Shown here piece by piece: positions 36,091 to 57,004 of a DNA stretch of 64,000 nucleotides. A program made the translations under genes and the position numbers. Within the stretch, counting starts at the first letter, position 1. Every line of letters starts with the position of its first letter. Location: NCBI GenBank assembly GCA_046757705.1, contig JBHHYT010000001.1, positions 237 to 64,236 on the forward strand, given 5' to 3'. The notes below the pieces were generated by a model. That model saw nothing but the letters and a program-made list of their open reading frames with translations. It did no database searches and was not told the origin of the DNA. Source of the DNA: Thermodesulfobacteriota bacterium (lineage in GTDB: Bacteria > Desulfobacterota > GWC2-55-46).

Positions 36091-36227
36091 AAACCCTCCT
36101 TAGCATACGTCCATACTCTTATTTCGGAGTTTCTAATGTAATATTAAATTATTTGCTTGGAGATTTTTAAGGACAAAAGTTACAAAACCGTCTTTTTTAG
36201 CGTAAGGTACCGGGTTTTTTCACTTTT

Positions 36228-37928
36228 TCAGTCGGCCATGGTGACCCTGAGGACCTCTTCGATGGTGGTAACGCCTTCGGCGACCTTTGTGATGCCGCTC
36301 ATCCTCAAGGACTTCATGCCGTCCTTGATGGCCTGCCTCTTTAGCTCGGCGGTGGAAGCGCCGTTGAGGACGAGGTCCTTGATGGACTCGGTAAACGGCA
36401 TCACCTCGTAGAGCGCGATCCTGCCCTTGTAGCCGGTGCCCCCGCAGGTGGCGCACCCCTTGCCCTTGTAGCACTCTATCTTGTGGGCCTCCTCGGGAGG
36501 GACCCCGAGGTCGACGAAGACGCTCTCGTTGATGGGGAGCTTCTCCGAGCATTCCTTGCAAATCTTGCGGGCGAGCCTCTGGGCAAGGATGAGGTTGCAG
36601 GCCGAGGAGACGAGAAAGGGCTCGATGCCCATGTTCAGAAGCCTGTTGACGGTCGAAGGGGCGTCGTTGGTGTGCAGTGTCGAAAGGACGAGATGCCCGG
36701 TGAGCGCCGCCTTGATGGCTATCTCGGCGGTCTCGTAGTCCCTTATCTCACCGACCATGATGATATCGGGGTCCTGACGCAGGAAGCTCCTCAGAGAGGC
36801 GGCGAAGTTGAGCCCTATGTCCTCGTGCATCTGGACCTGATTGATGCCCATCAGGTTGAACTCCACAGGGTCTTCGGCCGTGGAGATGTTCTCGCTTGTC
36901 TTGTTGAGCTCCGAGAGCGCGGAGTAGAGCGTCGTGGTCTTGCCGGACCCCGTGGGCCCCGTTACCAGCACGATACCCCAGGGCTTGTGGATGGCGTCCA
37001 TCAAGTGGTTGAGCGCCGTCTCCTCGAAGCCGAGCTTGGTCATGTCGAGCTGCAGGTTGCTCTTGTCGAGGAGCCTCAGGACGACCTTCTCGCCGAAGAG
37101 CGTCGGCAGGACCGATACCCTGTAGTCCATCTCCTTTTTACGGGAGAGTTTCAGCTTGATACGGCCATCCTGCGGGAGCCTGCGCTCGGCTATGTCGAGC
37201 TGGCTCATGATCTTTATCCTCGACACTATCGCGTTCTTGAGCTTCAGAGGGGGCTTCATCACCTCCATCAGAACGCCGTCTATCCTGTACCTGACGCGGA
37301 AGCTCTTCTCGTATGGCTCTATGTGGATGTCGCTTGCGCCCTTCTTTATGGCGTCGGTGAGTATCAGGTTGACGAGCTTTACGACCGGGGCGTCCTCGAC
37401 GGCCTTTTTCAGGTCCGACAGGTCGACCTCGTCCTCTTCCTTGACTATCTCCATCTCGTCGTCGTCGAACTCAGTAAGCACCCCTTCGAGACCCATCATC
37501 TCCGAGGTGTCGTAGAGAGTATCGATGGCGGTCTTGATGGCGGCGTCCGAGGCCACCAGCGGCTCGACGTTGTAGCCGGTGAGGAACTTTATGTCGTCGA
37601 TGGCGAATATGTTGGAAGGGTCCGCCATGGCGACCACCAGCGTTGAGCCGGTGCGGCTTACGGGTATTACCTGATACTTCTGGGCTACGTCCTCCGGGAT
37701 GAGCTGTATGACCTCATGGTCTATGTCCTGTGTAGCTAGGTCGATGGTGGGTATCCCGTACTGCCTGCTGAGGAATGCCGTAAGGTCCTTCTCGCTTATG
37801 TAGCCGAGCTTGGTCAGGTTGTACCCGAGCCTTCCGCCGCTCTTCTTCTGCTCGTCGATAGCGGTCTTGAGCTGCTCCGGGGAGATAAGTTTTTCTCTGA
37901 GTAGAAGCTCGCCTATTCTGTCTGTCAT
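36228..37928 (-). CDS. pilB: Type IV pilus assembly ATPase PilB (GspE family)
   Basis: N-terminal MTDRIGELLLREKLISPEQLKTAIDEQKKSGGRLG... (GspE N1 domain). Walker A GPTGSGKTTT. CxxC-x-CxxC tetracysteine (CKECSEK...CATCGGTG). Confidence 0.9.
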   Translation of the reverse strand: MTDRIGELLLREKLISPEQLKTAIDEQKKSGGRLGYNLTKLGYISEKDLTAFLSRQYGIPTIDLATQDIDHEVIQLIPEDVAQKYQVIPVSRTGSTLVVAMADPSNIFAIDDIKFLTGYNVEPLVASDAAIKTAIDTLYDTSEMMGLEGVLTEFDDDEMEIVKEEDEVDLSDLKKAVEDAPVVKLVNLILTDAIKKGASDIHIEPYEKSFRVRYRIDGVLMEVMKPPLKLKNAIVSRIKIMSQLDIAERRLPQDGRIKLKLSRKKEMDYRVSVLPTLFGEKVVLRLLDKSNLQLDMTKLGFEETALNHLMDAIHKPWGIVLVTGPTGSGKTTTLYSALSELNKTSENISTAEDPVEFNLMGINQVQMHEDIGLNFAASLRSFLRQDPDIIMVGEIRDYETAEIAIKAALTGHLVLSTLHTNDAPSTVNRLLNMGIEPFLVSSACNLILAQRLARKICKECSEKLPINESVFVDLGVPPEEAHKIECYKGKGCATCGGTGYKGRIALYEVMPFTESIKDLVLNGASTAELKRQAIKDGMKSLRMSGITKVAEGVTTIEEVLRVTMAD

Positions 37929-37970
37929 AGTCCCTGCGGTCGATTGAGGTGACAAAAGTTGTCAAAGTCC

Positions 37971-38095: not shown

Positions 38096-38554
38096 TCAGG
38101 TGTACTTGCGCGCGGTATGCACTATCTCCTCGGCGAAGAAGGGCTTTCTTATGTACTCGTCTATCATGCCCTCCTTCACACCCTGATAGATGGCCTTGTC
38201 CGCGTCCTTGAAGTACCCGGTGAAGAGCACCACGCGCGAGCCGGGGCAGAGGTGCTTGATCTTTCTGAACGTCTCCAGGCCGTTCATGACCGGCATTATC
38301 ATGTCCATGAAGATAAGCGAGTACCCGGTGTCCTCGACCGCCTTGAGGGCCTCCCTCCCGCTCGTGACGTAGATGGCCTCGTACCCGGCGTCCCTGAGTA
38401 TCTCCGAGATGCCAATACCCACGGTCACCTCGTCGTCCACGACGAGGATCCTTCTCGAACCGCCTTTTCCGTCTTTTGGTTTTTTTTCTTCGGCCTTCAA
38501 TCCGTCCCCCTTTCTTATCGGCGCTTGCGAGCAGGACTTAAGTCTCCGCCACAT
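38096..38554 (-). CDS. Single-domain response regulator (CheY-like receiver) with K-rich N-terminal tail
   Basis: 152 aa. RRILVVDDEV...FMDMIMPVMNG...VLFTGY...IRKPF receiver motifs. Downstream of, and 17 nt overlapping, the histidine kinase. Confidence 0.7.
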   Translation of the reverse strand: MWRRLKSCSQAPIRKGDGLKAEEKKPKDGKGGSRRILVVDDEVTVGIGISEILRDAGYEAIYVTSGREALKAVEDTGYSLIFMDMIMPVMNGLETFRKIKHLCPGSRVVLFTGYFKDADKAIYQGVKEGMIDEYIRKPFFAEEIVHTARKYT

Positions 38555-40547
38555 GATTTTCCGCCGGCGAACGGGCGTTTACGGAGGCGCCCTTTTCCGC
38601 CGTGTCCGGGCTGTTCAGGGGGACGAATATCCTGAACGTCGCCCCCCCTTGCGGGCTGTTTTGAACCTCTATCCTGCCGTTGTGCTCCTTTATTATCGAC
38701 TGCGATATGGAGAGCCCGAGCCCTATGTTGTGCCCTCCCCCCTTCTCCTTGGTGGAAAAAAACGGGTCGAATATCTTCTCCATCACATCATCGGGTATTC
38801 CGGGGCCGGTGTCAGTGATCTCAGCTACGGCGTAGTCACCGGACCCCTCGCGGGAGACCCAGGTGGATATGTAGATCGTCCCTCTCCCGTCCATGGCGTC
38901 CCTCGCGTTCTTTATGATGTTGAGGAACACCTCCATTATCTGCCCCTTGCTGCCGAAGACCTTCGGGAGCTGGAGGTCGAAGTCCTCCTCTATCTTTATG
39001 GAGCAGGTCTTTATCTCCGAGATGAATATGCACAGGGTGGCGCGAAGCGCCTCGTTCAGGAACATCGGCTCGAAACCATGCCTCGAGGGGCGCGAGTAGG
39101 TGAGCATGTCGAGTATGATGTACTTCGAGCGCGTTGCGGCGTCCTTCATCTTCTCGAGGAGCCTGTGGTTCGGGTCGTCCGGCGGGGTCCTGTTCAGCAG
39201 CACCTCGGTTATGCTCAGTATACCGGCCAGGGGGCTGTTGAGCTCATGGGCTATGCCCGCGCCCATCTCGCCCAGGGATATCAGCTTTGCCGACTGGACG
39301 AACCTCTGCTCCGAGTCCTGCAACTTTACGTACGCCTGCTCGAGGGCCGTAAGCGAGCTGTTCAACTCGGCCGTCCTCTGGCGGACCGTCTCCTCGAGCT
39401 CCTCGACGTGCTTGCTTATTATCTCCTGAAAGCCCTTCCTCTCTGACAGGTCCCTCCATATCTCCTGCATGAACCTGCGCCCCTCTATCTCCATGACCGA
39501 GGCGGCGATCTCTATGGGGACGACGCTTCCGTCCTTCCTTACGACCTCGGCCTCGTGGATGTACCCCCTGCCGTCGCGGGCGAGCCTCCTGAACGCGTCC
39601 CTGTACTCCTCTACCCGCTCACGCGGGTACAACTGAGTCGTCTTCATCGCCTTGAGCTCCGTGGACGTATAGCCCGTGAGCTTCTCGGCCGCCGGATTGA
39701 CATCGGTGAACGTGTCGGTCTCGAGGTCTTTGATCAGTATCGCGTCCGCCGCCATCTGCATAAGCTTCGAGTGCTTCTCGTCGAGCGCCTCGAGCCTGGA
39801 TGTCGCAGTCGAAAGCGAGGCGGCCATATCGTCGAACGCGCTACCCGTCTCCTCGAACTCGTCACCCGTGTTTATGCCGAGCCGGTAGTCGAGGTCACCG
39901 GAGGCGAGCGCCTCCGCGCCCTTTTTGAGCTCGTCTATGGGCACGAGCAGCCTGTCGTGGACGACGTACAGGATGCACAGGCTGGTCAGTACGAGGATGC
40001 CGCCGCCCCAGTAGATGAAGTTCCACGAGTGGTCGGTGATAATCGCCTCGTACTTCTCAAGCGATATCTCTACGGATATGGCGCCTATTATCTCCCCGGC
40101 GTGCGTGTGGTGGCACCTCACGCACCCCTTGCGAGCGATTATTGGCTTTACGAAACGGGCCACGCTGAAGCCGCCGTCTCTCGATATCATGCTTACCAGC
40201 CTGCCTTCGAGCGCCGCCCGGTCGTACTCGTCCACGGGCAGCTCATCCTCCTCCATGCCGTGCTGCCAGTCGATGACCACGCCGTGCATGACACGCACCT
40301 CCTTGACGCCCTCTATCAGCTTGAACCTCTCTATTATGGCCCTGTTCTCGGCCCTTCCCCCTCCGGCGCTCATAGAATGGAGCAGCTCTTCAAAGAGCCC
40401 GTTGCTCAAACGTTCGCTCTCGCTCAGGCCGATGTCGGTAAGGAGCTTCATGTTGGAGTGTAGGTCGTTGAAGACGAGCAGGCCTATGCCGACGGCAAGG
40501 ATTGCGCCGATGTAGATAGTGAACCTCTGGGATAGCCTGAGCCTCAT
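38538..40547 (-). CDS. Sensor histidine kinase with periplasmic CxxCH (haem c) motif, PAS domain, HisKA, HATPase
   Basis: 669 aa. TM1, periplasmic domain containing ARKGCVRCHHTHAGE, TM2. PAS. H-box GIAHELNSPL. N/G boxes (IKNARDAM, DTGPGI, GLGLSIS). Confidence 0.8.
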   Translation of the reverse strand: MRLRLSQRFTIYIGAILAVGIGLLVFNDLHSNMKLLTDIGLSESERLSNGLFEELLHSMSAGGGRAENRAIIERFKLIEGVKEVRVMHGVVIDWQHGMEEDELPVDEYDRAALEGRLVSMISRDGGFSVARFVKPIIARKGCVRCHHTHAGEIIGAISVEISLEKYEAIITDHSWNFIYWGGGILVLTSLCILYVVHDRLLVPIDELKKGAEALASGDLDYRLGINTGDEFEETGSAFDDMAASLSTATSRLEALDEKHSKLMQMAADAILIKDLETDTFTDVNPAAEKLTGYTSTELKAMKTTQLYPRERVEEYRDAFRRLARDGRGYIHEAEVVRKDGSVVPIEIAASVMEIEGRRFMQEIWRDLSERKGFQEIISKHVEELEETVRQRTAELNSSLTALEQAYVKLQDSEQRFVQSAKLISLGEMGAGIAHELNSPLAGILSITEVLLNRTPPDDPNHRLLEKMKDAATRSKYIILDMLTYSRPSRHGFEPMFLNEALRATLCIFISEIKTCSIKIEEDFDLQLPKVFGSKGQIMEVFLNIIKNARDAMDGRGTIYISTWVSREGSGDYAVAEITDTGPGIPDDVMEKIFDPFFSTKEKGGGHNIGLGLSISQSIIKEHNGRIEVQNSPQGGATFRIFVPLNSPDTAEKGASVNARSPAENHVAET

Positions 40548-42397: not shown

Positions 42398-42510
42398 TAC
42401 CTTCACCCGGCGGAAAAAAGCAGGCCCCCGTAAGGGCCGCGATAGCCCCCTGCCGTATATATCGTCGGCGGGCTTTGAAAGCTTTACCCGGGCCCCCTCA
42501 AGGAGAGCCA

Positions 42511-44124
42511 TTGGAGATAAGGTCTGATTACCTCGTTATCGGAAGCGGCATCGCGGGCCTGAGCTTCGCGCTCAAGGCCGCCGCCAAGGGCACCGTGACC
42601 GTGCTTACGAAGAGGAACATCCGGGAGAGCGCCACATTCTACGCCCAGGGAGGCATCGCGTCGGTGTCGAGCAAGGAGGACACCTTCGAGGCGCACATAA
42701 AGGACACGCTCTACGCCGGGGCCGGGCTGTGCGACAGGCGGATCGTCGAGATGGTCGTAAGGGACGCGCCTGAACGGGTGGAGGAGCTCATAAGGCTCGG
42801 GGTCGAGTTCTCCAGACGCTGCGCGGGCTCGGAGGCCGAGCTCGACCTCGGCAGGGAGGGCGGGCACTCCAAGCGCAGGATAGTCCACGCCGAGGACCTC
42901 ACGGGCAGGGCCGTTGAAGAGGCGCTCGTCTGCGCCGTTGCATCCAACCCCAATATCACCGTATTCGAGAACCATATCGCCATAGACCTCCTTGCGCACT
43001 CCAAGTTCGTCGGCCCCCCTGCCCATGGCAAGGAGGCCATATGGGGCGCATACGCGCTCGATAAGGCCACCGGGGAGGTGAAGTCCTGCCTTGCGCGGGC
43101 AACCGTGCTGGCCACGGGCGGCGCGGGCAAGGTATATCTGTTCACCAGCAACCCGGACGTCGCCACCGGCGACGGCACGGCCATGGCTTACCGCGCCGGC
43201 GCCGAGGTGGCGGACATGGAGTTCATCCAGTTCCACCCCACCTGCCTGTACCACTCCAAGGCGAAGAGCTTCCTCATCTCCGAGGCGTTGAGGGGCGAAG
43301 GCGGCAGGCTCATCCTCAGGGACAACACGCAGTTCATGAAGAGACACCACCCGATGGCGGACCTCGCGCCCAGGGACATCGTGGCGCGCGCCATAGACTT
43401 CGAGCTCAAGAAAAGCGGGGACGAGTGTGTCTACCTCGACATCAGCCACAGGCCCGCCGCCTTCATAAAGGGGCGTTTCCCGAACATCTACCGCAAGTGC
43501 CTCGAGTTCGGCATCGACATAACCGCCGGGCCCATACCGGTCGTCCCGGCGGCGCACTATACGTGCGGAGGTATACGCACCGACGACAGCGGCAAAACGG
43601 GCCTCGACAGGCTCTACGCAATAGGCGAGACCGCGTGCACCGGGCTTCACGGCGCCAACCGGCTTGCCTCCAACTCCCTGCTCGAATCGCTCGTCTTCGC
43701 CGACAGGGCCGCCCGGCAGGCCCGGCGGGTGGTGGACGGGAAGGAGACCGTGCCACAGATACCGCCGTGGGAGCCGGGCGGGGCCGTAGTGAGCGACGAG
43801 GCGGTCGTCATAACCCAGAACTGGGACGAGATACGCCGTTTCATGTGGAACTACGTGGGCATCGTCAGGTCGGACAAGAGGCTCGAGAGGGCGAAAAGGA
43901 GGATAAACCTCCTCAAGGAAGAGATAAACCAGTACTACTGGGACTTCACCATAACGAACAACCTCGTGGAGCTGAGGAACATCGCCACCGTGGCGGAGCT
44001 TATCATAGACTCCGCGGCCCTGAGGAAGGAGTCGCGCGGCCTGCACTATAACATCGACTACCCGGAGAAGAACGACAGGGATTTTCTCAAGGACACGGTC
44101 CTGAAGCTCACCGCGCCTGCCTGA
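42511..44124 (+). CDS. nadB: L-aspartate oxidase
   Basis: DYLVIGSGIAGLS FAD motif. RESATFYAQGGIA, HPTCLYH, RGEGG. Start placed at TTG 42511 (MEIRSDYLVIGSG) with AAGGAGA Shine-Dalgarno; track ORF starts at 42475. Confidence 0.85.
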   Translation: MEIRSDYLVIGSGIAGLSFALKAAAKGTVTVLTKRNIRESATFYAQGGIASVSSKEDTFEAHIKDTLYAGAGLCDRRIVEMVVRDAPERVEELIRLGVEFSRRCAGSEAELDLGREGGHSKRRIVHAEDLTGRAVEEALVCAVASNPNITVFENHIAIDLLAHSKFVGPPAHGKEAIWGAYALDKATGEVKSCLARATVLATGGAGKVYLFTSNPDVATGDGTAMAYRAGAEVADMEFIQFHPTCLYHSKAKSFLISEALRGEGGRLILRDNTQFMKRHHPMADLAPRDIVARAIDFELKKSGDECVYLDISHRPAAFIKGRFPNIYRKCLEFGIDITAGPIPVVPAAHYTCGGIRTDDSGKTGLDRLYAIGETACTGLHGANRLASNSLLESLVFADRAARQARRVVDGKETVPQIPPWEPGGAVVSDEAVVITQNWDEIRRFMWNYVGIVRSDKRLERAKRRINLLKEEINQYYWDFTITNNLVELRNIATVAELIIDSAALRKESRGLHYNIDYPEKNDRDFLKDTVLKLTAPA

Positions 44125-44179
44125 CCCCGGCAAGGCCCCTCAAAGAAAGGCAAACGCCGCCCCATTAAAAACGCCCCTC

Positions 44180-45317: not shown

Positions 45318-46262
45318 TCAGTAATTGAATGCCGCGGCGTCGAGGCCGTCCTTTATCCCCTGATAAAAAAGGGCCTTTTCGTTGTCCCCCAGCTCCCTGC
45401 AGACGCTGATGAGCCTGTCGAGCGCCTCCATGGTATTGCTGCGGGAGCCGCTGTTGGAGCTTACGACATAATAGCGCTCGAAGAGGAAGAGGGCCTTGAT
45501 GCGGCGGCCCGTCTTCAGGTTCAGCTCCGCCAGCTTCCTGAGGTCATGCGCTATCTTATCCGGCACCCCGGCGCTGGCGTCGAGCCTGTACGCCTTCTCG
45601 TAGTAATCGAACGCCTCTTCGGCATCGCCACCGGCAACGCTTGTATCGCCGAGCGCCCTGTAGGAGTTGGCCTGCTCGAGGGTGTCCCCGGCGTCGGTGT
45701 TTATCCTGAGCGCCGTGCCTAAGACCTCCCTGGCCTGCGCGTGCCTCCCGCAGTCGATATAGATGTAGCCGAGCAGGTTGAGCCTTGCTCCGGATTTATA
45801 ACCCAATCTGCTGTCGATTTGCAACGATTCTTCCATGTAGTCGAGCGCGGGGCCGGTCCGGCCCGAGAGATACTCGACCTTTGCGAAGGTCGCGTACGCC
45901 TCGGAGAGGTTCGCCTCATCCTTTGTCACCTCTCCGAGCCTCACCGCCGAGTTGAGAAAATCCGCAGCCGCCACGTACCTCCCGAGCGCCGTGTAGACCC
46001 TGCCTATGTTCACGAGGTCACGCATCTCGCCGGAACGGTTGTCGATGGAACGGTCTATACGGAGCGCCTCCCTGAACTTGTCCAGCGCCCTCTCGCGCGC
46101 GCCCGAGGCGAAGGCCTCGGCCCCGTCCCTGCTCGCCCCCTCGGACATGGAGAGCATAAACGGCCTGTCGGCGCGGATATGCGCGCACCCGGCGAAGAGC
46201 CCGGCGCCCGCAAGAGCCACGGCAAAGACAATACCAGCATACCTGCCCAAAAACCTACTCAT
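45318..46262 (-). CDS. TPR-repeat lipoprotein
   Basis: Lipobox LFAGC. TPR-like repeats (NIGRVYTALGRYVAAADFLNSAVRL, NLLGYIYIDCGRHAQAREVLGTALRI, YRALGDT...AEEAFDYYEKAYRL). Confidence 0.5.
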   Translation of the reverse strand: MSRFLGRYAGIVFAVALAGAGLFAGCAHIRADRPFMLSMSEGASRDGAEAFASGARERALDKFREALRIDRSIDNRSGEMRDLVNIGRVYTALGRYVAAADFLNSAVRLGEVTKDEANLSEAYATFAKVEYLSGRTGPALDYMEESLQIDSRLGYKSGARLNLLGYIYIDCGRHAQAREVLGTALRINTDAGDTLEQANSYRALGDTSVAGGDAEEAFDYYEKAYRLDASAGVPDKIAHDLRKLAELNLKTGRRIKALFLFERYYVVSSNSGSRSNTMEALDRLISVCRELGDNEKALFYQGIKDGLDAAAFNY

Positions 46263-47205
46263 CCACCCTCCTTTTAAACAGGGAACCGTCAAGGGGCACC
46301 AGCGCCGGGGCCGTCCGCCCGGGCAACATCAGCCTTATGGGCCAGCTCCGCCTCAACCCTTTCATGACATGCCTGCCATCCGACGCAGCCTGCCCGGCGT
46401 CGATGAGCAGCCGCCTTATCCTCTGCTTCTCGGCGGACATCATACCAGTAATCCCACCCAGGTCGTCAACTATCTTTTCCACCTTCACGGAGATCCTCTC
46501 GGCCCTCCCGGAGATGGAGCCGAGCCGGGCCGCCGCAGGGCCCAGGTCGTCGGCTACCGCGTCGAGCTTGCGCACGAACGCCCTCGACTCCCTGACCGTG
46601 GCGGAGAACTCCCTCATCGTGTCGGCCATCGCCTCCCTCGACCGGTTCAATTCTACGGTAAGCCCCCTCATGTTTTCAAGTATAACCTTTATATCGCCTT
46701 CCGGGTCGTTTGCATAGTCTATAATCTCCTTTATTTCCTTGAGCACCGGTTTGGCCTCCCTTATGAGCGTCTCTATGCCGCCCGTCCTCTCGAACGGGAG
46801 CACCTCCCCGTCTGCGAGCATCCTGCCCTCCGGGTCCCCGCCCGTTATCTCGACGAAGGCGTCCCCTATGAAGCCCTCCTTTACGAGGCGCGCCCTGGAG
46901 CCCTCGCGTATCCACCTCTCATACCTCTTGTTCACCTCCGCAAAGACCTCTACGCGGGCGTCGCCTGTAAGCTCTATACTCCTGACCCGGCCTATCTTGA
47001 ACCCCGAGAGCTTCACCGGCATCCCCTTCACGATGCCCGCGCCGCTCTCCGAGACGAAGTGCAGGCGGTACTTCTTGGTGAACAGGTCGCGCTCCCTGCC
47101 GATGAGCACCATGACGAGCAGGACGCCGATAACGGCGAAGAGCACGAGCACGCCCGTTTTTACCTCGAGGTTCCTGAACCTCGGGTCCTTCTCCCTTATG
47201 CCCAT
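46255..47205 (-). CDS. mlaD: MCE-domain protein (MlaD-like)
   Basis: N-terminal TM (VLVLFAVIGVLLVMVLIG) then MCE domain (KYRLHFVSESGAGIVKGMPVKLSGFKIGRV). Long coiled C-terminus. Confidence 0.7.
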   Translation of the reverse strand: MGIREKDPRFRNLEVKTGVLVLFAVIGVLLVMVLIGRERDLFTKKYRLHFVSESGAGIVKGMPVKLSGFKIGRVRSIELTGDARVEVFAEVNKRYERWIREGSRARLVKEGFIGDAFVEITGGDPEGRMLADGEVLPFERTGGIETLIREAKPVLKEIKEIIDYANDPEGDIKVILENMRGLTVELNRSREAMADTMREFSATVRESRAFVRKLDAVADDLGPAAARLGSISGRAERISVKVEKIVDDLGGITGMMSAEKQRIRRLLIDAGQAASDGRHVMKGLRRSWPIRLMLPGRTAPALVPLDGSLFKRRVDE

Positions 47206-47894
47206 CAGCGTACACCTCCCTTTTCAACGAACACGCCGCCCTCTATGCGCACCACCCGGCAGGCCTTGAAGACCGGGGCGTCCGCCGCGCTGGTGGAGGT
47301 AAAGAGCAGCCCACGGGACGGGCCGCAGGCGTGGAAACCGAGTATCAGCGAGGCTAGGACCTCCTTCTCGAAGGCCGTAAGTCCGGCGCCTATGCTCTCG
47401 CAGACGAGCACCTCCGGGTCCATGGAAAGGGCCCGCGCCACCGCGACCCTCTTCCTGTCGTGGAACCCCAGCAGGTCCGGCAGCCCCCAGAGGTCACCTT
47501 TAAAGCCCGTTGCGCCGAGCAGTTCACTTGCGAGCTCCAAGCACTCCTCAGGAGGCGTGTTCGTGTGGTAGAGCATCGGCAGGGCCACGTTCTCGATGAC
47601 CTTCAGGTTGCTCACCAGCACGGTGTCCTGAAAGACGAAGCCCATCCTCTTCTTGAGCCCGTTGAACGCCGACGGGGAAATCCCGGCTACCCCCTCTCCG
47701 AACAGGCGCACGGCGCCGCCCTCTGGCGCGAGCAGCCCGGAGATGAGCTTCAGGAGCACGCCCTTGCCCGAGCCCACCGGGGCGGTAACGAGCAGTATCT
47801 CCCCGGGGGCAAGCGAAAGGTGCGCCCGGTCGAATATGAGACGGCCGGCGTCGTTGGTATAGGTTACGTCCGTAAGCTCGACAAGTGGTTCCAT
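47205..47894 (-). CDS. mlaF: ABC-transporter ATPase-like protein (MlaF-like) with degenerate motifs
   Basis: 229 aa. Walker A APVGSGKG (S/T replaced by G). LSGGQ replaced by LGFHD before RKRVAVARAL. Walker B region VLVCESIGAGL. ATGA overlap with mlaD. Confidence 0.6.
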   Translation of the reverse strand: MEPLVELTDVTYTNDAGRLIFDRAHLSLAPGEILLVTAPVGSGKGVLLKLISGLLAPEGGAVRLFGEGVAGISPSAFNGLKKRMGFVFQDTVLVSNLKVIENVALPMLYHTNTPPEECLELASELLGATGFKGDLWGLPDLLGFHDRKRVAVARALSMDPEVLVCESIGAGLTAFEKEVLASLILGFHACGPSRGLLFTSTSAADAPVFKACRVVRIEGGVFVEKGGVR

Positions 47895-48015
47895 TCCATC
47901 CCCGGGGCCTGCGCCCTCGGCCTGTGCCCTGCGGCAGTGCCGTCTGTCACACCCCTCTCCTTCAAGTCATGGTGAGGGGTGCCGAGACAGAAAAACCACC
48001 CGGCCCGCGCGGCGC

Positions 48016-48798
48016 TTACATGAAAAACAGTATGGTGATGGCGGCGTCTGTCACGAAGACGAGGCCGAGGCTGCCGATGACCGCCTTCGTGACCTCCTGT
48101 GGTATCTGGGTAATCGACCTTTGCACCATCAGTCCGTGGTAAGAGCATACGGTGCCTGTTATAAGCCCGAAGAGGATGCTCTTCAATATCGAGACGCCCA
48201 CCTCGACAAAGCCCATGGCCCCGAGTATGCTCGACATGTAGACCGAAAAGGCTACCTTCTTCCCGAAGCCCGCCAGCAGGTACCCTCCCCCGATGGATAT
48301 GACCTCGAAGTAGACGGTGAGCGCGAAGACGCTCACGGCCGTGCCTATGACCCGGGGCATCACGAGGTAGTGCATGGGGTCTATGCCCATGACCTCGAGG
48401 GCCGCGATCTCCCGGGATATCTTCATGGTCCCGAGCTCCGCGGCTATGGCGGTGCCGCTGCGCGCTATGACTATGACCGAGGCGATGACAGGGCCGAGCT
48501 CGCGAACCACGACCCAGACGAGCATCTCGCCTATGAGCCCCTCGCCCCCGAGGCGCGGCAGTATGCTCAGCGCCTGTGTGACGACTATCAGGCCGAGGAT
48601 GAGCGCTATCCAGGAGACGATGGGGATGGCCTCGTAGGCGGTAAAGTATATCTGCTTCAAAAAAACGCTGAAGGTCGCCCGCCGCCGACCCACGAGCCTG
48701 AGAGCGGAACCGAGCGAGAAGGCGAGCAGCCTCCACTGGGCGTGTAGCACCCCCGCGCGCAATGACAGCTTTTCGCCTAAAGACCGGAATATCCCCAT
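48016..48798 (-). CDS. mlaE: ABC permease MlaE-like
   Basis: About 260 aa from ATG 48798 (MGIFRSLGEK). Conserved MlaE segments EAIPIVSWIALILGLIVVTQ, IVIARSGTAIAAELGTMKISREI.AL.VMGIDP. Confidence 0.75.
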   Translation of the reverse strand: MGIFRSLGEKLSLRAGVLHAQWRLLAFSLGSALRLVGRRRATFSVFLKQIYFTAYEAIPIVSWIALILGLIVVTQALSILPRLGGEGLIGEMLVWVVVRELGPVIASVIVIARSGTAIAAELGTMKISREIAALEVMGIDPMHYLVMPRVIGTAVSVFALTVYFEVISIGGGYLLAGFGKKVAFSVYMSSILGAMGFVEVGVSILKSILFGLITGTVCSYHGLMVQRSITQIPQEVTKAVIGSLGLVFVTDAAITILFFM

Positions 48799-49128: not shown

Positions 49129-49884
49129 TCAGAAGTCCGCCCTGACGTTAAGGAACGGCCCCTTGACCGTCAGGTCCCCCTTGTCAAGATCCTTCTCAAC
49201 GTGTATCTTGAAGAGCCTGTAACCGCCGGATACGACCACGAAGGGCGCGGGCTTGAAGTTGAACGCCGCCTCTCCGTCGACGAGATAGGCGTTGCCGCCA
49301 AGCGTTATTCCCGTCACCTCGCCCCCGACAGAGAAGAGGAACGGAAGCGAGACCTGGGCGGAGACGCCCACCGTGGGTATCGGGACGTTGAAGTTCTCGT
49401 TCTCGTCGAGCCCGAGTGACGTCGCCTTGAGGCGCGCGTTGCCGTCGAAGTACTTGAGCTCGAATATGAAGCCGAGGTGGTTATCAAGCATATCTATTAT
49501 ATCATATTCGTAGCCGAGGCGGTGGTAGTTCACATTCAGCTCCGACTCGACGGGGGTGGACGCCGTGTAGGTCTTGCCGCCGAAGATGACCTGCTGCGCA
49601 AGGGTGCTGGTGGCGTCCCACTTGAGAGGCACGAACGCGTACCTGATCTTGTGGCTTCCGAGCTCGAGGGTTATCCTGCCCTCGACGAAGCCCTTCGTCT
49701 CGTCGACGCCGAGGTCGTTGACGAAGTCGACGTTTGTCCCGGCGATGGAGCCGCTCGATGCCGTAATATCGCTGCTGAGGTTGGTAAACCAGTACCGGGC
49801 ATCGACGTCCACTACGGCCGACGCCTTTGAGCTGAACGAGACGGCGGCCAGAAATACGGCAAAAGCCAGCAGGATCTTCTTCAA
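49129..49884 (-). CDS. Outer-membrane beta-barrel protein (secreted, C-terminal Phe)
   Basis: 251 aa. Signal peptide MKKILLAFAVFLAAVSFSSKASA. Alternating amphipathic beta-strands. Terminal ...NVRADF. Confidence 0.4.
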   Translation of the reverse strand: MKKILLAFAVFLAAVSFSSKASAVVDVDARYWFTNLSSDITASSGSIAGTNVDFVNDLGVDETKGFVEGRITLELGSHKIRYAFVPLKWDATSTLAQQVIFGGKTYTASTPVESELNVNYHRLGYEYDIIDMLDNHLGFIFELKYFDGNARLKATSLGLDENENFNVPIPTVGVSAQVSLPFLFSVGGEVTGITLGGNAYLVDGEAAFNFKPAPFVVVSGGYRLFKIHVEKDLDKGDLTVKGPFLNVRADF

Positions 49885-50917: not shown

Positions 50918-52132
50918 CTAATATATGTTGAGCCTCTGCTTGAGCACCCTTACGGCGAGTATCGCCTCGGCGCCGTCGACCTCGTCGTCCGGCCTGAACT
51001 CCCCGGAGAGCTCGGTCTCCATCAGGTTGCGGGTGGTCACGTTCATAATCGCGTTGTACCACGCGCTATCGGGCCGGACGTCCGGGAACGGCGAGCGCCT
51101 GTGGCCGAAGTATGCGGAGGAGATAGTCTCGTCCCCGGTGAGCTTTATGAGCACGTCCTCGAGCACCAGGGCGAAGTCCTTCCGAAGGACCGGCCTGTCC
51201 GGGCCGAAGAGGTACTCCTTCGATGACGGGTCCAGCACCGGCTCGAGGCCGCGCACCCCCCACTTCATAAGCAGGAGTATCTCCTGCTTGAAGGGGCTCG
51301 CCGCCACGTCCACGGGCGTGGGCCCCGGCTTCATCCTCTCTATCTCGGAGCTTACCGGTATCCTTCCGGCGAAGAGCCTGTCTATCTTCAGCTCGTCGAC
51401 GAGAAGCGCCGCCATGTCCCCGCGCGAGACCCTGTCCTTGACGGCTATCTCCGTCCCTATGTCCCCGAGGGTGATGCCGGCGAGCGCCCTTACTATCTTG
51501 TCGGTCTTCTTCCACGCCCTGTCGGCCTTTTCGTTCCATTTGCCTTCCCTGCGCAGGCCGAGCACGTCGCCGAACCTGTCCCGGGCCTTCTGGAACTCTC
51601 CGGCCTCGAGGTACGCGACACCCATGAAGTACGGGGCGGCCTCCCTGCCGTCGTAGAATACGAGCGCGTTCTCGTCGACCTTGAGCTTCATGGCCTTGCG
51701 GTAGCCGCCCTCGGCCGAGCGGAGCCACTTCCTCGGCTTGAGGACGGTATCGACACGCATGGACGCGAGGTAGTACGCGAACTCGTCTTCCTTGGTCTCG
51801 GCCCTCTTGAACGCCCTCTTGAGGTCGTAGAAGGACTTGTCCGCCGCCTCCTGGCGCATCTCACCGGACGGAAGCGCGGCGGCGGCGTACGCCTCGTACA
51901 GAGCGCGCCCGGCGTATCCTGGCCCGAAGCCCCTGTCGCACCGGAGCGAGCGGTCGAACTTCGCGGAGGCGTCCGCGAGCCTGCCCTGCTCTATCATCTC
52001 CATGCCGACGGAGTAATGGTGGCGCGGGTTGTCCTCGGGGGAGGTACAGACCATCTCCGGCCTGGAGCACCCGGCAGCCACGAAAAGCAGGGCCGCCAAC
52101 AGGGGCAGCAACAGCCTTGAAGGATTTCTCAT
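50918..52132 (-). CDS. Lipoprotein with two C-terminal SLH (S-layer homology) domains
   Basis: About 404 aa from ATG 52132 (lipobox FVAAGCS). SLH motifs DVAASPFKQEILLLMKWGVRG...FGPDRPVLRKDFALVL and FPDVRPDSAWYNAIMNV...FRPDDEVDGAEAILAV match FxDVxxxxWxxxxI...G...F.P...iTRaEaa. Confidence 0.6.
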   Translation of the reverse strand: MRNPSRLLLPLLAALLFVAAGCSRPEMVCTSPEDNPRHHYSVGMEMIEQGRLADASAKFDRSLRCDRGFGPGYAGRALYEAYAAAALPSGEMRQEAADKSFYDLKRAFKRAETKEDEFAYYLASMRVDTVLKPRKWLRSAEGGYRKAMKLKVDENALVFYDGREAAPYFMGVAYLEAGEFQKARDRFGDVLGLRREGKWNEKADRAWKKTDKIVRALAGITLGDIGTEIAVKDRVSRGDMAALLVDELKIDRLFAGRIPVSSEIERMKPGPTPVDVAASPFKQEILLLMKWGVRGLEPVLDPSSKEYLFGPDRPVLRKDFALVLEDVLIKLTGDETISSAYFGHRRSPFPDVRPDSAWYNAIMNVTTRNLMETELSGEFRPDDEVDGAEAILAVRVLKQRLNIY

Positions 52133-52262: not shown

Positions 52263-53252
52263 TCAGTCCAGCACCTTTACCACGTCGCCGGCGCGGAAGC
52301 CCGCGCCGGACTTTACCGCGCCCTCCGAGATGTTCTCGCCCTGATGGGTGGTCAGGGTTATCTCGCCTATCTTCTTCTCCCTCTTGCCGAGCACCCTGCC
52401 GGTATCCGGGTCTATGAGGTCTCTGCCGGGCCTGTAGACGCCGAGCGTGGTGCCCGGCTCGAGCCTGCTCCTGGTCCCTGCCCTTATGATTATGCTGGGC
52501 CCTTCCACGAGCACCACGCGGCTTTTGAAGGGTATGGCGTTGAGCTTCTCTATCATATTCGACATGGCCTTTGAGAGGGCGTCGCGAAGCGCGCCGTCCC
52601 TCAGGCCGGGGTCGGCGGTCGCCCTCGAACCCAGGCCGAGTATGCCGCCGGTCTTCTTCCTGTACTCGCCCAGCCCGGACTCGGACAAGAGGGTCTTTCC
52701 CGTGGAGACGTCCACGAGGGCGTAGTCCACCTGCACCCGCGCTATCCGGGTCTTGCTCTGGGTGAGTATGGTGTTGATCGACTCCTCGACCTCGGCGTAA
52801 GAGGTTATGGAGCCGGATATCCTGAAGTCCACCGACTCGAAGCCGGCGGCGGCGTCCTTCCTGCCCTTCCTGAGGGCCCCGGTCTGCTGAAGCTCGATAA
52901 GCCGCTCCTGCTCCTTCATCTCGTCTTTGGTCAGCACCACCGGCTCGAGCCCCGCCTGCTTTACGATGGTCCTCAGTATGTCGGTGGCCGCCTCCCCGAC
53001 GCCGATGGTCCCGCTCGGGGTCCTGTTGTCGAACTGGAGTATGGCGATGTTGTAGTCAGGCCCGCGGTACATGGAGCCGAGCTGCTCGAGCTCCCCGGTC
53101 TGCTCGGTGAGGCTTACGTCCTCCTTTACCGCCCCGGACATCGTCGGCCCGCAGCCCGTAAAGAGGAAGGCCGCCCCGATAAGCACGGCGAAAAGGACGC
53201 TCAACGTCCCTGCTTTAAACCCGTTTATCATCTCTGCCCCTCCTTTTTTCAA
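52263..53252 (-). CDS. CsgG-family lipoprotein (curli-type secretion channel-like)
   Basis: 329 aa. Lipobox LFTGCG. YNIAILQFDNRTPSG...GVGEAATDILRTIVKQAGLEPV...KEQERLIELQQTG matches the CsgG family N-domain pattern. Confidence 0.65.
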   Translation of the reverse strand: MKKGGAEMINGFKAGTLSVLFAVLIGAAFLFTGCGPTMSGAVKEDVSLTEQTGELEQLGSMYRGPDYNIAILQFDNRTPSGTIGVGEAATDILRTIVKQAGLEPVVLTKDEMKEQERLIELQQTGALRKGRKDAAAGFESVDFRISGSITSYAEVEESINTILTQSKTRIARVQVDYALVDVSTGKTLLSESGLGEYRKKTGGILGLGSRATADPGLRDGALRDALSKAMSNMIEKLNAIPFKSRVVLVEGPSIIIRAGTRSRLEPGTTLGVYRPGRDLIDPDTGRVLGKREKKIGEITLTTHQGENISEGAVKSGAGFRAGDVVKVLD

Positions 53253-53314: not shown

Positions 53315-54169
53315 TCAGGGGCCGGCCGCCCCGCCCCTGGCCCTCCCGGGGCCCGCCGGGAAGCCGGAGAGGACCTTTTTCAGCAAGACGTCCGTCTCCG
53401 CCTTCAGGTGCACGCCGAGGGCGGTGGTGATGATCTTCTCCGAGAGGGCGATGATGGCGGCGTCCCCGGCCTTGCGCGTCCCTATGACGCTTACAAGGCG
53501 CCAGTCGGAGAGCCCCTTTATGTCCTCTATCCCCTTTATGGAGCTGAACTCGTCGAGCCCGTCGCCCTCCAGCTCCTGCAGTATGGTTATGCCAGCGCCC
53601 GCCTTGCCCCCGGCTATCGCCGCCTTTACGCCGAGGCCGTCCGACCATACGACGACGCCCGTTCTCGTGTCCACGAGCTTGAAGCCCGCCCTGACCTTCT
53701 TGACGTTGTACAGGCCGGTGGTTATGTCGTCGAAGTTCAATACGTAGCCGTATATGACGCCGTCGACGCCGAGCACCTCTCCCACCTTCCCGGGGGTGGT
53801 CATCTCGAGCTGCGAGCCGAGCGTTATGCCCATCCTGTTTACGAGGACGGAGTCGGTCTGCTCAAGGGGCATCACCGAGTAGTGGCGTCCCTGGATGCGG
53901 CGGAAGAACTCCTCCCTTATCATGCGCGGGCCCTTCACGTCGTTCGTGGCGTTGTAGAACGGCAGTATGGCCACCGTGTAGACGGGGTTGGACGGGTCGG
54001 GCGCCACGGGGCGCACTCTCGGGCCCGCCGCGCACGCGGTGAGAGCAAAGGCGGTAAAGAGGAGCAATGCCGCGAACCGCGCTTTTTTTGATGACACAGC
54101 CCTTCTTCGAGCCACACTACCCGCGCGGGTACCGGGGTATGAGAGATTTCCGGACATCCACTGCTCCAA
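53315..54169 (-). CDS. Lipoprotein, CsgG-partner-like (DUF799/GNA1162-like; uncertain)
   Basis: 284 aa. Lipobox ALTACA. YTVAILPFYNATNDVKGPRMIREEF segment resembles DUF799-type lipoproteins that co-occur with CsgG homologues (from memory). Confidence 0.4.
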   Translation of the reverse strand: MEQWMSGNLSYPGTRAGSVARRRAVSSKKARFAALLLFTAFALTACAAGPRVRPVAPDPSNPVYTVAILPFYNATNDVKGPRMIREEFFRRIQGRHYSVMPLEQTDSVLVNRMGITLGSQLEMTTPGKVGEVLGVDGVIYGYVLNFDDITTGLYNVKKVRAGFKLVDTRTGVVVWSDGLGVKAAIAGGKAGAGITILQELEGDGLDEFSSIKGIEDIKGLSDWRLVSVIGTRKAGDAAIIALSEKIITTALGVHLKAETDVLLKKVLSGFPAGPGRARGGAAGP

Positions 54170-54234: not shown

Positions 54235-55485
54235 CTACCTGTTGAGGTCCACGCCCTCGACTATCACGTCAACGGAGTCCTTCGTGGCGCCCGTTACCCT
54301 GAAGTACGGCCCGAGCCTCGATACCCCGTCGGCTATCTTCTGGGCGCTTACCGTGGCCTCGAGTTCGAGCACGGCCGTGTCGCCGGTGTAGGAGCGCAGG
54401 AATATCGCCTCTATGCCCCTTATCCTGCCCTTGAGCCTTTTCTTGAAGTCCTTCAGCTCCTTGTAGTTGTCGACGCCGGAAAGGCGCAGGGTTACGGTCC
54501 GGGGGCCCGCCCACCTCTTCGTTATCTGCTCCACGAGCCTGCCGCCGAGCTCCGCCGAGGCCTTTGATATGGCCTCTGAGCCGCCGGTTATCGAGGAGAT
54601 GTTCCTCGCGGCGCCGTGGCCGGTGCTCGTGCCGAGCACCACCCCGTCGTCGACCCTCACGGCCGTTGCCGTCACATCTGCCAGATAGGTGCCGACGGTG
54701 CTTCCCGGCGTGCGGGGGCCCTCTGTGGCCACGGCCTTGCCGTAGACGACGATATCCGCGTTGAGCCCCTTTCCGACGGAGCGTGCCCCGTCCCTGCCAA
54801 GGTCGGCGACCTTCACGGCGTCGGAGAGGTCGAAGGTGCCTGTGCTGCCGGAGATGTCCACGACGTTGAAGCCCTTATCCACGAAGAGCTCCTTCAACGA
54901 TGACTCGGCGGCGGACAGGTCGACCGACTCGCCCCTGTACTCGCTCCTTCCCCACCACCAGAAGACGTAGTACCTGTGGCCGATGTTCTTCTCGGCCATC
55001 ATGAACAGTACCCTCGGGTTCTCGGCCTTTCTCCTGAGGATGCCCAGCGCGCCCAGCTCGTCGCGCAGGCCTCCGACTGCTACCTCGGCGCGCACGCTTA
55101 CCCGGTAGACGCCTGAGGACTGCCCCTCGGCGGTAACGGAATAGCTCTTGATGTAGCCGTGGGTCTGCGTATAGACGTTGTCGCTCAATGCCTGATAGTT
55201 CTCTACCATGGTCTCGGAGGAGACCAGCGTACCCACGCCCTGCTCGACGGCCTTTCTGAGCGCGTCGGCTATGGCGGAGTCCCGTGCCGCGGCCTCACCC
55301 CCGCCGGCAACAACGGCCACCCCCGTGGATTCCACGACCTTTATCCCGGGAGCGGCCCGGGCACGGGCTGGCACGGCCATGAGGAGGCATGCAAACAGGA
55401 AGATGGCAACTGCCATGAAGCGGCAGCTCCCGGACGGACCGAGGGGTGCGGTTGTATTTTCCATGGATAAAGACCTCCTGATCAA
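54235..55485 (-). CDS. Secreted three-domain protein with N-terminal LPP20-like domain (FlgT/FlgP-like architecture)
   Basis: 416 aa (likely start at internal ATG 55416, MAVAIFLFACLLMAVPARA signal). IKVVESTGVAVVAGGGEAAARDSAIADALRKAVEQGVGTLVSSETMVENY...VYRVSVRAEV is LPP20-like. Confidence 0.4.
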   Translation of the reverse strand: MIRRSLSMENTTAPLGPSGSCRFMAVAIFLFACLLMAVPARARAAPGIKVVESTGVAVVAGGGEAAARDSAIADALRKAVEQGVGTLVSSETMVENYQALSDNVYTQTHGYIKSYSVTAEGQSSGVYRVSVRAEVAVGGLRDELGALGILRRKAENPRVLFMMAEKNIGHRYYVFWWWGRSEYRGESVDLSAAESSLKELFVDKGFNVVDISGSTGTFDLSDAVKVADLGRDGARSVGKGLNADIVVYGKAVATEGPRTPGSTVGTYLADVTATAVRVDDGVVLGTSTGHGAARNISSITGGSEAISKASAELGGRLVEQITKRWAGPRTVTLRLSGVDNYKELKDFKKRLKGRIRGIEAIFLRSYTGDTAVLELEATVSAQKIADGVSRLGPYFRVTGATKDSVDVIVEGVDLNR

Positions 55486-55746: not shown

Positions 55747-56229
55747 TCAGTTCTGCACCTGTGGGCTGGCAGCGGAGGCCGTAGTGCCCGTCTCGAACCT
55801 CAATATGCCCGACTGGTCGGCGTAGAACCAGCGGGCGGAGGTGGAGCCGTCTACCGGGGCTGCGGTCACCTGCCAGACGGGCTTGCCCCCGGAGGTGCCT
55901 GAGGAAAGGCTGAAGGTATACTCGTGCTCGATGCGCGTCGACGCACCTGTGGAGGGCGTTATCAGCCCCGTCGTTTCGAGCTCGTCGAAGTCGCCGGTGT
56001 ACGACGCCGTCGGGCTCCCCAGGTAATAGAGCTCCTCGGCCTTTACGAGCTTGGAGAGGTATGAGATCACAGCGGTCTCCCGCGCCTTCTGTATGAACTT
56101 GCTGTAGACGGGCAGGGCTATGACGGCGAGTATGGCGACTATGGCCATGGTGAACAGGAGCTCGAGGACGGTAAAACCGCCTGTACCGCCACCGCTTCCG
56201 GCCGGCCCGCCCGCCGCATGCGCGCTCAT
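55747..56229 (-). CDS. Type IV pilin-like / pseudopilin protein (prepilin N-methylation domain)
   Basis: G|FTVLELLFTMAIVAILAVIALPVY class III signal. Gly-rich leader. S/T-rich mature domain. Start set at ATG 56229; track ORF extends to 56283. Confidence 0.6.
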   Translation of the reverse strand: MSAHAAGGPAGSGGGTGGFTVLELLFTMAIVAILAVIALPVYSKFIQKARETAVISYLSKLVKAEELYYLGSPTASYTGDFDELETTGLITPSTGASTRIEHEYTFSLSSGTSGGKPVWQVTAAPVDGSTSARWFYADQSGILRFETGTTASAASPQVQN

Positions 56230-56269
56230 ACCGTTTGTCCGCACCATAGGCTTTTTCCCGAAGGCCCCT

Positions 56270-56836
56270 CTAACCATCGGCACAGCGGGCGTTAAGCTCG
56301 CTTATGAGGCCCTGCGTAAGGTGTTTAACGTCCTCGGGGTACTCGGCGCCCTCGGCCTCGAGCATCGCCGATATCATCTCGAGACGGGTCTTGACGTCGT
56401 TGCAGAAGGCGGCGTCGCGGTTCCGTCTCAGCTCAAGCTCCTGCGCAAGCGCGTTAAGAAGCCCCTCCATCTCCTTGAACTCGTCCCTCTTCCTTATGCG
56501 GATGCGGTGCGCGTAGTTCCCGGACGTAAGCTCCTCGATCATCCTCTCGAACCTGTACATCGGCCCCACGACACGGTGGGAGGAGAATATGGCGTGCACC
56601 GCGGCAAGCACCGCGACCAGGAAAAAGCCTATCCAGACCCTCTTGTGCAGGAAGAGCACCATCGAGGATATGCGCGCCTGCTCATCGATGCTCGCGGCGG
56701 AGTTGAGCGCGCTGTAGAGCGGATAGAAGATGATAAAACCGAGTATGGCAGAGTAGATGACAATGTAGATAAAGAAGGTCAAGGCGAGCTTGAGCTGGTA
56801 CTCGGGCTTTACGATAATCTTTTTACGGGCAGCCAT
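56270..56836 (-). CDS. Membrane protein with two TM helices and a HAMP domain (no output domain)
   Basis: Start set at ATG 56836 (MAARKK) with GGAGAA Shine-Dalgarno. TM1, TM2, then HAMP-like GPMYRFERMIEELTSGNYAHRIRIRKRDEFKEMEGLLNAL. Confidence 0.45.
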   Translation of the reverse strand: MAARKKIIVKPEYQLKLALTFFIYIVIYSAILGFIIFYPLYSALNSAASIDEQARISSMVLFLHKRVWIGFFLVAVLAAVHAIFSSHRVVGPMYRFERMIEELTSGNYAHRIRIRKRDEFKEMEGLLNALAQELELRRNRDAAFCNDVKTRLEMISAMLEAEGAEYPEDVKHLTQGLISELNARCADG

Positions 56837-57004
56837 CGTGTGCTTCTCCAAAATAAACTCTGAACAATTCGTCCCGGAACCATTCAGACCCTTCCCGAAT
56901 AAAGGAACCCTGTATCTGAATCACAACCCAACTCTCCCCCGTGGGAGAGGGCAAGGGGCAAGCGGTTGCCGAAAACACCCCCTGAGGAGCGCAATGGCGC
57001 GGCA

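Follow-up and report, generated by a model that had tools for sequence, protein, structure and literature searches.

Peptidoglycan is bound by the outer-membrane lipoproteins Pal and PorE, the latter (PG1058) belonging to the type IX secretion system of Porphyromonas. Both recognize the peptide stem with an OmpA_C-like domain; PorE contains a TPR domain as well and serves as the anchor of one particular envelope machine. The S-layer homology (SLH) domain is a different wall-binding module, and the ligand of its characterised examples is either a pyruvylated glycan or polyaminated peptidoglycan. Wall anchoring by SLH is regarded as a hallmark of the Terrabacteria, and a published survey describes SLH together with CsaB as “practically absent” from the Gracilicutes. 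Here we describe a gene, designated the SLH-TPR gene, in a 64,000-nucleotide stretch (the window) of a Thermodesulfobacteriota metagenome-assembled genome (MAG; GenBank assembly GCA_046757705.1, contig JBHHYT010000001.1, positions 237 to 64,236). Its product combines a predicted lipid anchor, a TPR-like solenoid and an SLH module. With a probability of roughly 0.55, we read the protein as one subunit of a conserved assembly of outer-membrane lipoproteins, the subunit that anchors the assembly to the wall and scaffolds it through the TPR part, with an anionic glycan as its putative ligand.

Among described SLH proteins, Sap of Bacillus anthracis (PDB 3PYW/6BT4) and SpaA of Paenibacillus alvei (6CWC) have three-repeat SLH domains, which end secreted S-layer or enzyme proteins of monoderm bacteria. 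The family of the window protein also has three repeats, but its module is the C-terminal part of a periplasm-facing lipoprotein of a diderm, its first repeat has no FxDV cap and borrows a helix from the solenoid, and the sequence identity is 13–15%. [quoted passage not shown] The OmpM/SlpA/Slp tethers of diderm Terrabacteria resemble the window family, as read here, in that SLH connects outer membrane and wall from within the periplasm, and the family profile detects the SLH domain of OmpM1 (8bz2, E 5e-4). OmpM has one SLH per chain, a coiled-coil stalk that trimerises it and a porin barrel, whereas the window family has three SLH repeats per chain and a lipid anchor. The model of the window protein contains neither barrel nor stalk, and a small barrel gene two genes downstream (found in 34 of 84 related loci) is not adjacent to it. 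According to the published survey, OmpM is absent from the Gracilicutes, the host phyla of the window family. The family resembles Pal, and more closely PorE, except that SLH takes the place of the OmpA_C domain; no OmpA-family domain matched at E≤1 in Pfam. The TPR outer-membrane lipoproteins PilF/PilW and BamD have no wall-binding domain, and the window protein scores far under the cut-offs of these families (BamD, TIGR03302, 18.8 against 81.4 bits; PilW, TIGR02521, 14.2 against 154 bits), with matches to the N-terminal ~60 residues only.

SLH repeats, lipid anchor and solenoid

The gene is the minus-strand open reading frame (ORF) 50918..52132, contained in a longer ORF that extends to 52225 (-), and encodes 404 amino acids. 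Its product is identical over the full length (100% identity, 100% length) to the NCBI record [quoted passage not shown] on a 64,365-bp contig, which backs up the start codon and the assignment of the host independently. An earlier note on this DNA had described an N-terminal lipobox and a TPR-like domain followed by two SLH repeats. Both peptide strings quoted in it are present in the translation, and the architecture (lipobox, TPR, SLH) was read correctly.

With the Pfam profile for SLH (PF00395; PROSITE PS51272), one stretch reached 42.6 bits, well over the gathering score (20.8), at E 5.8e-11: aa 348–391, which is the second repeat of the earlier note (repeat C; Table 1). The first, repeat B, received no Pfam SLH call in the window protein. 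It is homologous to repeat C and in register with it in a profile-profile comparison by hhalign (E 6e-8, probability 94.7%), for which sub-alignments were taken from a 109-sequence family alignment. The orthologue of Geomesophilobacter gave two Pfam SLH stretches with 58.7 bits. A cryptic third repeat, A, aligns in register with repeat B (hhalign E 9e-5), its core helix DRVSRGDMAALLVD being matched with RPVLRKDFALVLED of repeat B. In Sap SLH2 the register likewise agrees, with the helix KIDRVSMASLLVE (the “...IDRVSMASLLV” segment) opposite that of repeat A. The SLH assignment therefore stands by Pfam search, while the count of two is replaced by three on the basis of hhalign and the fold match given below. 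The first helix of repeat A is probably the last solenoid helix (aa 200–217). In repeat B, D275 is invariant (109/109), R317 is present in 103 and G295 in 101 of the 109 members, and the family consensus around the arginine is VTRAE. Repeat C has G387 in place of the arginine, and its Gly29 position is deleted by a two-residue gap at the “xG” of the GIIxG motif of repeat B.

The AlphaFold2 model calculated from the family alignment (predicted local distance difference test score 94.4, predicted template modelling score (pTM) 0.89) is all-helical and consists of the TPR plus SLH parts. Foldseek placed the SLH domain of Sap (3pyw) first among the matches of the model (TM-score 0.63, target-normalised); the match was placed on aa ~200–404 by the Pfam and hhalign registers. 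A 34-sequence profile of the C-terminal half retrieved Sap from the PDB (5.4e-5), along with the OmpM1 domain mentioned above, while a single-sequence phmmer search of the PDB with the same half gave nothing relevant. In the predicted structure, the C-terminal module is a complete three-repeat SLH domain of the three-pronged spindle type, each repeat giving one helix to the three-helix core.

Under the +2 rule of Escherichia coli, Ala, Gly or Ser after the lipobox cysteine predicts sorting to the outer membrane. In the family, Cys22 is invariant (109/109) and is followed by Ala, Gly or Ser; Asp is not among the six commonest residues listed at this position. An outer-membrane location is thus predicted for the SLH-TPR lipoprotein. 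The solenoid begins ~13 residues after the lipid anchor, and single Pfam TPR models scored well under threshold on the window protein. An S-layer protein was considered and rejected: the 404 residues are fully covered by signal peptide, TPR and SLH parts, with no self-assembly region. The label “S-layer protein” on family members in public MAG records (L052, L066, L069 and related ones) is a misnomer derived from the domain name.

Groove G2 as a candidate ligand pocket

In SpaA, pyruvylated N-acetylmannosamine sits in groove G2, and the pocket is built from SLH-Arg43 (TRAE motif) of SLH1, SLH-Gly29 (GIIxG motif) of SLH2 and SLH-Trp13 of SLH3 (Blackler et al., PMC6081394). Gly29 is required for a backbone flip in the pocket, G2 is the primary ligand site in both SpaA and Sap, and Arg43 is also structural, as it stabilises the SLH trimer (PMC6081394). 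When these positions were mapped by sequence register rather than by model coordinates, the G2 triad of the window protein was R237 (repeat A), G295 (repeat B) and the aromatic residue at position 359 (repeat C). Position 237 is Arg in 105 and Lys in 4 of the 109 members, and position 359 is Phe or Tyr in 105; the window protein has Y359 and also W358. The Arg, Gly and aromatic positions are each kept in 93–96% of the family. Grooves G1 and G3 are degenerate: the arginine of repeat C is Gly in 107/109, its Gly29 is deleted, and the repeat A counterpart is Thr or Ser in 90/109. R317 of repeat B may be structural.

[quoted passage not shown] Because the G2 triad is kept and because of this correlation, we infer that the module has one functional pocket for an anionic sugar. 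By the same reasoning from sequence, its ligand would probably be an anionic, ketal-pyruvylated or similarly carboxylated glycan linked to peptidoglycan.

Family, host and operon

A full HMMER scan of 1.84 billion representatives found 582 clusters (at 50% identity) with E≤1e-3, of which 393 had E≤1e-10 and 147 had E≤1e-30. Nearly all clusters listed are ~400 aa long and matched end to end. When GTDB species, each represented by one genome, were scanned with a pattern from a 28-sequence closer alignment and not from the diverse 109-sequence one, the family was confirmed in 195 genomes. The best 80 of the 195 include “Deltaproteobacteria”/Thermodesulfobacteriota MAGs, Geobacteraceae, Geomonas, Geobacter, Desulfuromonadaceae, Syntrophaceae, Syntrophorhabdaceae and Nitrospirota/Thermodesulfovibrionales. 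Magnetococcales and marine metagenomes contributed members at a greater distance. The named homologues listed belong to Thermodesulfobacteriota, Nitrospirota, Magnetococcales, metagenomes and one MAG labelled Pedobacter sp., with none from Firmicutes or Cyanobacteria. Record names are “S-layer homology domain-containing protein”, “TPR repeat protein” and, wrongly, “S-layer protein”. A literature search on the SLH-TPR family, or on SLH in Geobacter or Thermodesulfovibrio, found nothing relevant.

The host had been described as deltaproteobacterial, which agrees with its assignment to Thermodesulfobacteriota, the phylum that contains most former Deltaproteobacteria, including Desulfuromonadia and Syntrophia. 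The gene content of the window is consistent with this (rnfCDGEAB operon, c7-type multihaem cytochrome, type IV pilus genes, Sat/CysC, CysQ and MlaEFD), and an HtrA-like protease and an SLT lytic transglycosylase are also encoded. The view that SLH anchoring is non-standard in this phylum is likewise borne out by the survey statement on Gracilicutes quoted above. The suggestion that the gene was acquired horizontally with the CsgG cluster was not upheld, at least for a recent event. The G+C content at third codon positions (GC3) of the gene is 0.87, compared with 0.81–0.86 in its neighbours and 0.75–0.88 in most of the window, and the local G+C content is 0.65 compared with 0.55–0.65 over the window; the composition of the gene is native to the window. 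The family is present in at least 195 species-level genomes, its synteny is conserved, and sequence clusters at ~68% identity are mostly coherent with taxonomy. The Nitrospirota and Geobacteraceae versions share 65% identity on average, while the window protein shares 60% with its own clade, reflecting either very strong constraint or an old lateral spread among these phyla. Judged from these sequences, the gene bears no sign of recent import from Terrabacteria.

On the minus strand, the gene order is FlgT_N-like, GNA1162-like, CsgG/LpoB-fold, SLH-TPR, 282-aa partner, small barrel, mlaE, mlaF and mlaD (Table 1).

Table 1 Features of the SLH-TPR protein and its operon, given as window coordinates.
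Feature	Position	Strand	Description
Signal peptide and lipobox	52067..52132	-	aa 1–22, read from sequence, MRNPSRLLLPLLAALLFVAAG|C (LLFVAAG|C); Cys22 is the predicted lipidation site
TPR-like alpha-solenoid	51482..52027	-	aa ~36–217; family profile matches consensus TPR proteins
SLH repeat A (cryptic)	51365..51478	-	aa ~219–256; core helix SRGD, family [TS]R[AG][DE]; R237 is the SLH-Arg43 equivalent
SLH repeat B	51113..51322	-	aa ~271–340; PVDV...WGVRG...FGPDRPVLRKDFALVL; G295 and R317 are the SLH-Gly29 and SLH-Arg43 equivalents
SLH repeat C	50921..51094	-	aa ~347–404; FPDVRPDSAWYNAIMNV...FRPDDEVDGAEAILAV; aromatic 358/359 is the SLH-Trp13 equivalent
FlgT_N-like / LipL46-like exported protein	54235..55485	-	Pfam FlgT_N 36.7 bits vs 28.8
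GNA1162-like (DUF799) lipoprotein	53315..54169	-	Pfam PF05643 37.1 bits vs 25.9; lipobox ...ALTAC
CsgG/LpoB-fold lipoprotein	52263..53252	-	Pfam CsgG 23.4 bits vs 20.8; LpoB weak; lipobox ...LFTGC
Obligate partner, Sec-exported, 282 aa	49939..50787	-	FlgP/Lpp20-fold N-domain and Tp0624-like C-domain
Small outer-membrane beta-barrel, C-terminal Phe	49129..49884	-	TIGR04219 E 2.5e-19, 69.4 bits, below cut-off 105
mlaE-mlaF-mlaD (MCE/ABC lipid transporter)	46255..48786	-	immediately downstream of the operon; Pfam MlaE, ABC_tran, MlaD

Synteny was counted by tblastn of the window proteins against the 84 related loci. The 282-aa partner adjoins the SLH gene in 80 of them; of the four loci where it was missed, two or more run into the end of the contig. 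The FlgT_N-like gene was found in 54 loci, the GNA1162-like gene in 46, the CsgG-like gene in 38 and mlaE in 31, the last counted within 10 kb of the SLH gene and including divergently oriented copies in Nitrospirota loci; divergent mlaEFD genes lie upstream in several of these (L034, L040, L043, L044, L046 and L061), while in the clade of the window mlaEFD is adjacent to the operon. Among tblastn-negative loci, Pfam still detected upstream FlgT_N- and CsgG-type genes in a Nitrospiraceae locus and in Geomesophilobacter. Of the cluster's products, the SLH-TPR protein evolves most slowly, with 54–59% identity across phyla compared with 35–42% for the partner and <30% or no detection for the CsgG-like protein.

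The N-domain of the partner matches FlgP of the Campylobacter jejuni basal disk (9hmf_C, 1.3e-17) and Vibrio FlgP (5.6e-14), and its C-domain matches Treponema Tp0624 (9.9e-6). Tp0624 and the flagellar FlgP/Lpp20 proteins are thus relatives of the partner and not of the SLH protein. The partner is annotated as “hypothetical” everywhere and has a low-confidence hairpin (aa 84–107) in its FlgP/Lpp20-fold domain; its C-domain is otherwise matched only by Tp0624, probably by the D2 fold, which was described as previously uncharacterised. Tp0624, the nearest relative of the partner with a solved structure, fuses two N-terminal domains to an OmpA-like wall-binding domain (PMC5104382), and since related domains are fused in this way, the partner module may work together with a wall anchor. 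The difference from Tp0624 would be that the neighbouring SLH-TPR lipoprotein supplies wall binding in trans; the partner has no lipobox, and a flagellar context was not seen.

In the CsgG/LpoB-fold protein the CsgG match is partial (profile positions 64–156 of 210), while an orthologue in locus L064 scored 48.8 bits with CsgG and 34.8 bits with LpoB. A CsgG secretion channel was not assumed, as the Pfam match covers the alpha/beta core only, which is also found in the non-pore proteins PelC, PqiC and LpoB. CsgG, PelC, PqiC, LptE and FlgT are outer-membrane lipoproteins that share one alpha/beta core and assemble into rings or plugs, and rings of the PqiC type serve as docking sites for MCE transporters (PMC13631591). 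Since PqiC/CsgG-fold lipoprotein rings can dock such transporters, the neighbouring mlaEFD genes are of note, and by this analogy the operon may have a functional link to lipid transport. A weak match to FlgP (9hmf_C) was obtained with the FlgT_N-like protein. It also matches NCBIfam LipL46 of Leptospira (E 1.5e-7 over ~300 aa, far under the cut-off), and together with the Tp0624 match of the partner this gives the operon unexpected spirochaete relatives.

In two Nitrospirota-type loci (L003, 12271..17757; L034, 12423..18843), the cluster is extended by a GNA1162-NosD/beta-helix-TPR fusion and a transglutaminase-like protein, and L034 additionally has a TPR-SLT lytic transglycosylase, a wall-related neighbour. 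Directly upstream of the operon in the window are a prepilin-type (N_methyl/ComP_DUS-like) gene at 55747..56283 (-) and a gene at 56270..56851 (-), whose small membrane-protein product resembles sensor kinases in their HAMP/linker region. The pilin-like gene is retained in 11 related loci. A promoter and terminator scan of the operon gave results at chance level.

Elsewhere in the window, a ZMP/ZTP riboswitch (RF01750) was found with 54.1 bits, the gathering score being 39, at 7632..7719 (-), ~166 nt upstream of rnfC, the head of the rnfCDGEAB operon at 1993..7466 (-). This target, an ion-pumping ferredoxin:NAD oxidoreductase, is unusual compared with the usual purine and folate genes. A glycan/envelope cluster at 9005..30534 encodes two GT2 and one GT9 (heptosyltransferase-like) enzymes, three radical-SAM proteins (one B12-binding, one SPASM), an E1 alpha/beta pair dependent on thiamine pyrophosphate, and PMT_2-like and TPR membrane proteins. 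In the type IV pilus block at 27450..37955 (-), pilA was confirmed by its N_methyl motif, and pilR, pilS, pilC, pilT and pilB were read by eye only, as were a further response regulator and histidine kinase at 38096..40547. Two 549-aa ORFs on opposite strands, 42475..44124 (+) and 42484..44133 (-), overlap almost perfectly; the plus-strand one is aspartate-oxidase-like by eye and has high GC3. Long antisense ORFs in this GC-rich window are artefacts.

Role and meaning of the protein

In the reading that we prefer, the SLH-TPR lipoprotein would sit in the inner leaflet of the outer membrane and its TPR solenoid would hold the products of the same operon, namely the FlgP/Lpp20-plus-Tp0624-like, CsgG/LpoB-fold, GNA1162-like and FlgT_N-like proteins. 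The G2 pocket (R237, G295 and W358/Y359) would grip an anionic wall-linked sugar, so that the protein would staple the lipoprotein assembly, and locally the outer membrane too, to the sacculus. The folds of the operon partners are all known to form rings or disks beneath the outer membrane. The earlier note had also raised an SLH-based tether between outer membrane and peptidoglycan in the host lineage; a complex-specific anchor is favoured over such a bulk tether because of these ring-forming lipoprotein folds and the strict linkage to the FlgP/Lpp20-like partner.

Several points weigh against this reading. The structure of the protein is a prediction, the contacts between the TPR solenoid and its partners are read from gene order only, and the sole cultured carrier among the matches listed is Geomesophilobacter sediminis Red875 (NZ_JAEMHM01); further homologue and cluster look-ups yielded MAGs almost exclusively. 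No PS_pyruv_trans domain or pyruvyltransferase was found by Pfam in the glycan cluster of the window. A low-sensitivity tblastn search with E. coli WcaK in the window and the 84 loci (1.3 Mb) gave one weak match, which was LptD by Pfam, and family-specific repeat hidden Markov models found no second SLH gene in the window and related loci (1.3 Mb). The published survey, which counts SLH only where CsaB is also present, lists Geobacter sulfurreducens, Thermodesulfovibrio yellowstonii, Syntrophus aciditrophicus and Magnetococcus marinus without the SLH-plus-CsaB pair. Should carriers of the family be without CsaB too, the ligand could not be a CsaB product.

That no CsaB was found (by Pfam in the glycan cluster and by the low-sensitivity tblastn in the window and the 84 loci) would also fit an SLH-like module that no longer binds the wall and has been repurposed as a protein-protein or oligomerisation platform within the lipoprotein complex. 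Two of the three grooves are degenerate, the structural role of Arg43 in the SLH trimer means that its conservation alone is no proof of ligand binding, and the high pTM suggests rigid packing on the TPR domain. We nevertheless regard this as unlikely, as the G2 triad, including the ligand-specific flip glycine and the stacking aromatic residue, is kept at the level given above in several phyla, and the groove concerned is the primary site of SpaA and Sap. It is similarly improbable that the protein is the general outer-membrane-to-peptidoglycan tether of its lineage, sorted by Lol and doing the job of Pal or Lpp by means of SLH. A lipid anchor joined to a wall-binding module is Pal-like, the cross-phylum conservation is very strong, and the survey lists T. 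yellowstonii and Desulfobacca acetoxidans without OmpM, OmpA, Pal and Lpp. On the other hand, strict co-location with the FlgP-like partner and ring-fold lipoproteins suggests a dedicated assembly, the family does not look universal in its phyla, where Geomesophilobacter is the only cultured carrier among the matches listed, and G. sulfurreducens has Pal and OmpA-type proteins in the survey table. A related and slightly fainter possibility is a hybrid tether, in which a Lol-dependent lipoprotein of Gracilicutes type is combined with the SLH/anionic-glycan mechanism of Terrabacteria as the main or only link between outer membrane and wall in Thermodesulfovibrionales- and Desulfobacca-like lineages.

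The matches of the partner to FlgP, a component of the basal disk in C. jejuni and of the LPHT ring in Vibrio, together with the FlgT_N-like and CsgG-fold proteins alongside, raise the question of a periplasmic scaffold for a motility or secretion machine (flagellar basal-disk, H/T-ring-like or type IV pilus), with a role like that of MotX plus MotY or PflA/PflB. TPR proteins scaffold the C. jejuni motor (PMC12222027), and a pilin-like gene is located just upstream of the cluster. However, the surroundings of the cluster showed no recognisable flagellar genes, either in the window or in three loci with annotated flanks, Lpp20/FlgP and CsgG/LpoB folds are also common outside flagella, and the pilin-like neighbour occurs in just 11 loci, which makes this role very unlikely in our view. 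By far the least credible proposals are that the gene and the CsgG cluster were recently transferred together from some lineage of Terrabacteria, or that the product is an S-layer protein. SLH is typical of Terrabacteria, some MAG records use the name “S-layer protein”, and the ~65% identity between the Geobacteraceae and Nitrospirota versions would allow an ancient lateral spread among Gracilicutes phyla; against these stand the GC3 value close to those of the neighbours, the absence of Firmicutes and Cyanobacteria among the named homologues listed, a Lol-dependent lipoprotein architecture, which is a trait of Gracilicutes, and a 404-aa TPR lipoprotein without a self-assembly domain.

The presence of an SLH domain in this protein was already known from database annotation; what is new is the setting of the SLH wall-anchor module, namely its architecture, its operon and phyla in which it was not expected. 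A large conserved family places a complete SLH module with one intact canonical pocket, as judged from the model and alignments, on a lipoprotein in Thermodesulfobacteriota, Nitrospirota and Magnetococcales. An uncharacterised operon, that of the FlgP/Lpp20-, CsgG/LpoB-, GNA1162- and FlgT_N-like proteins, thereby becomes approachable for the first time, as its most conserved subunit resembles a wall anchor, and the cultured carrier G. sediminis Red875 offers a test organism. The hybrid tether, if true, would cross the proposed “ancient divide” and mean that these phyla have a wall polymer, pyruvylated or modified in another way, that has so far escaped notice. If the SLH-TPR protein does bind the wall, these lineages would carry an undescribed wall epitope, a pyruvylated or similar glycan, which the published survey would have missed since SLH was listed there only alongside CsaB.

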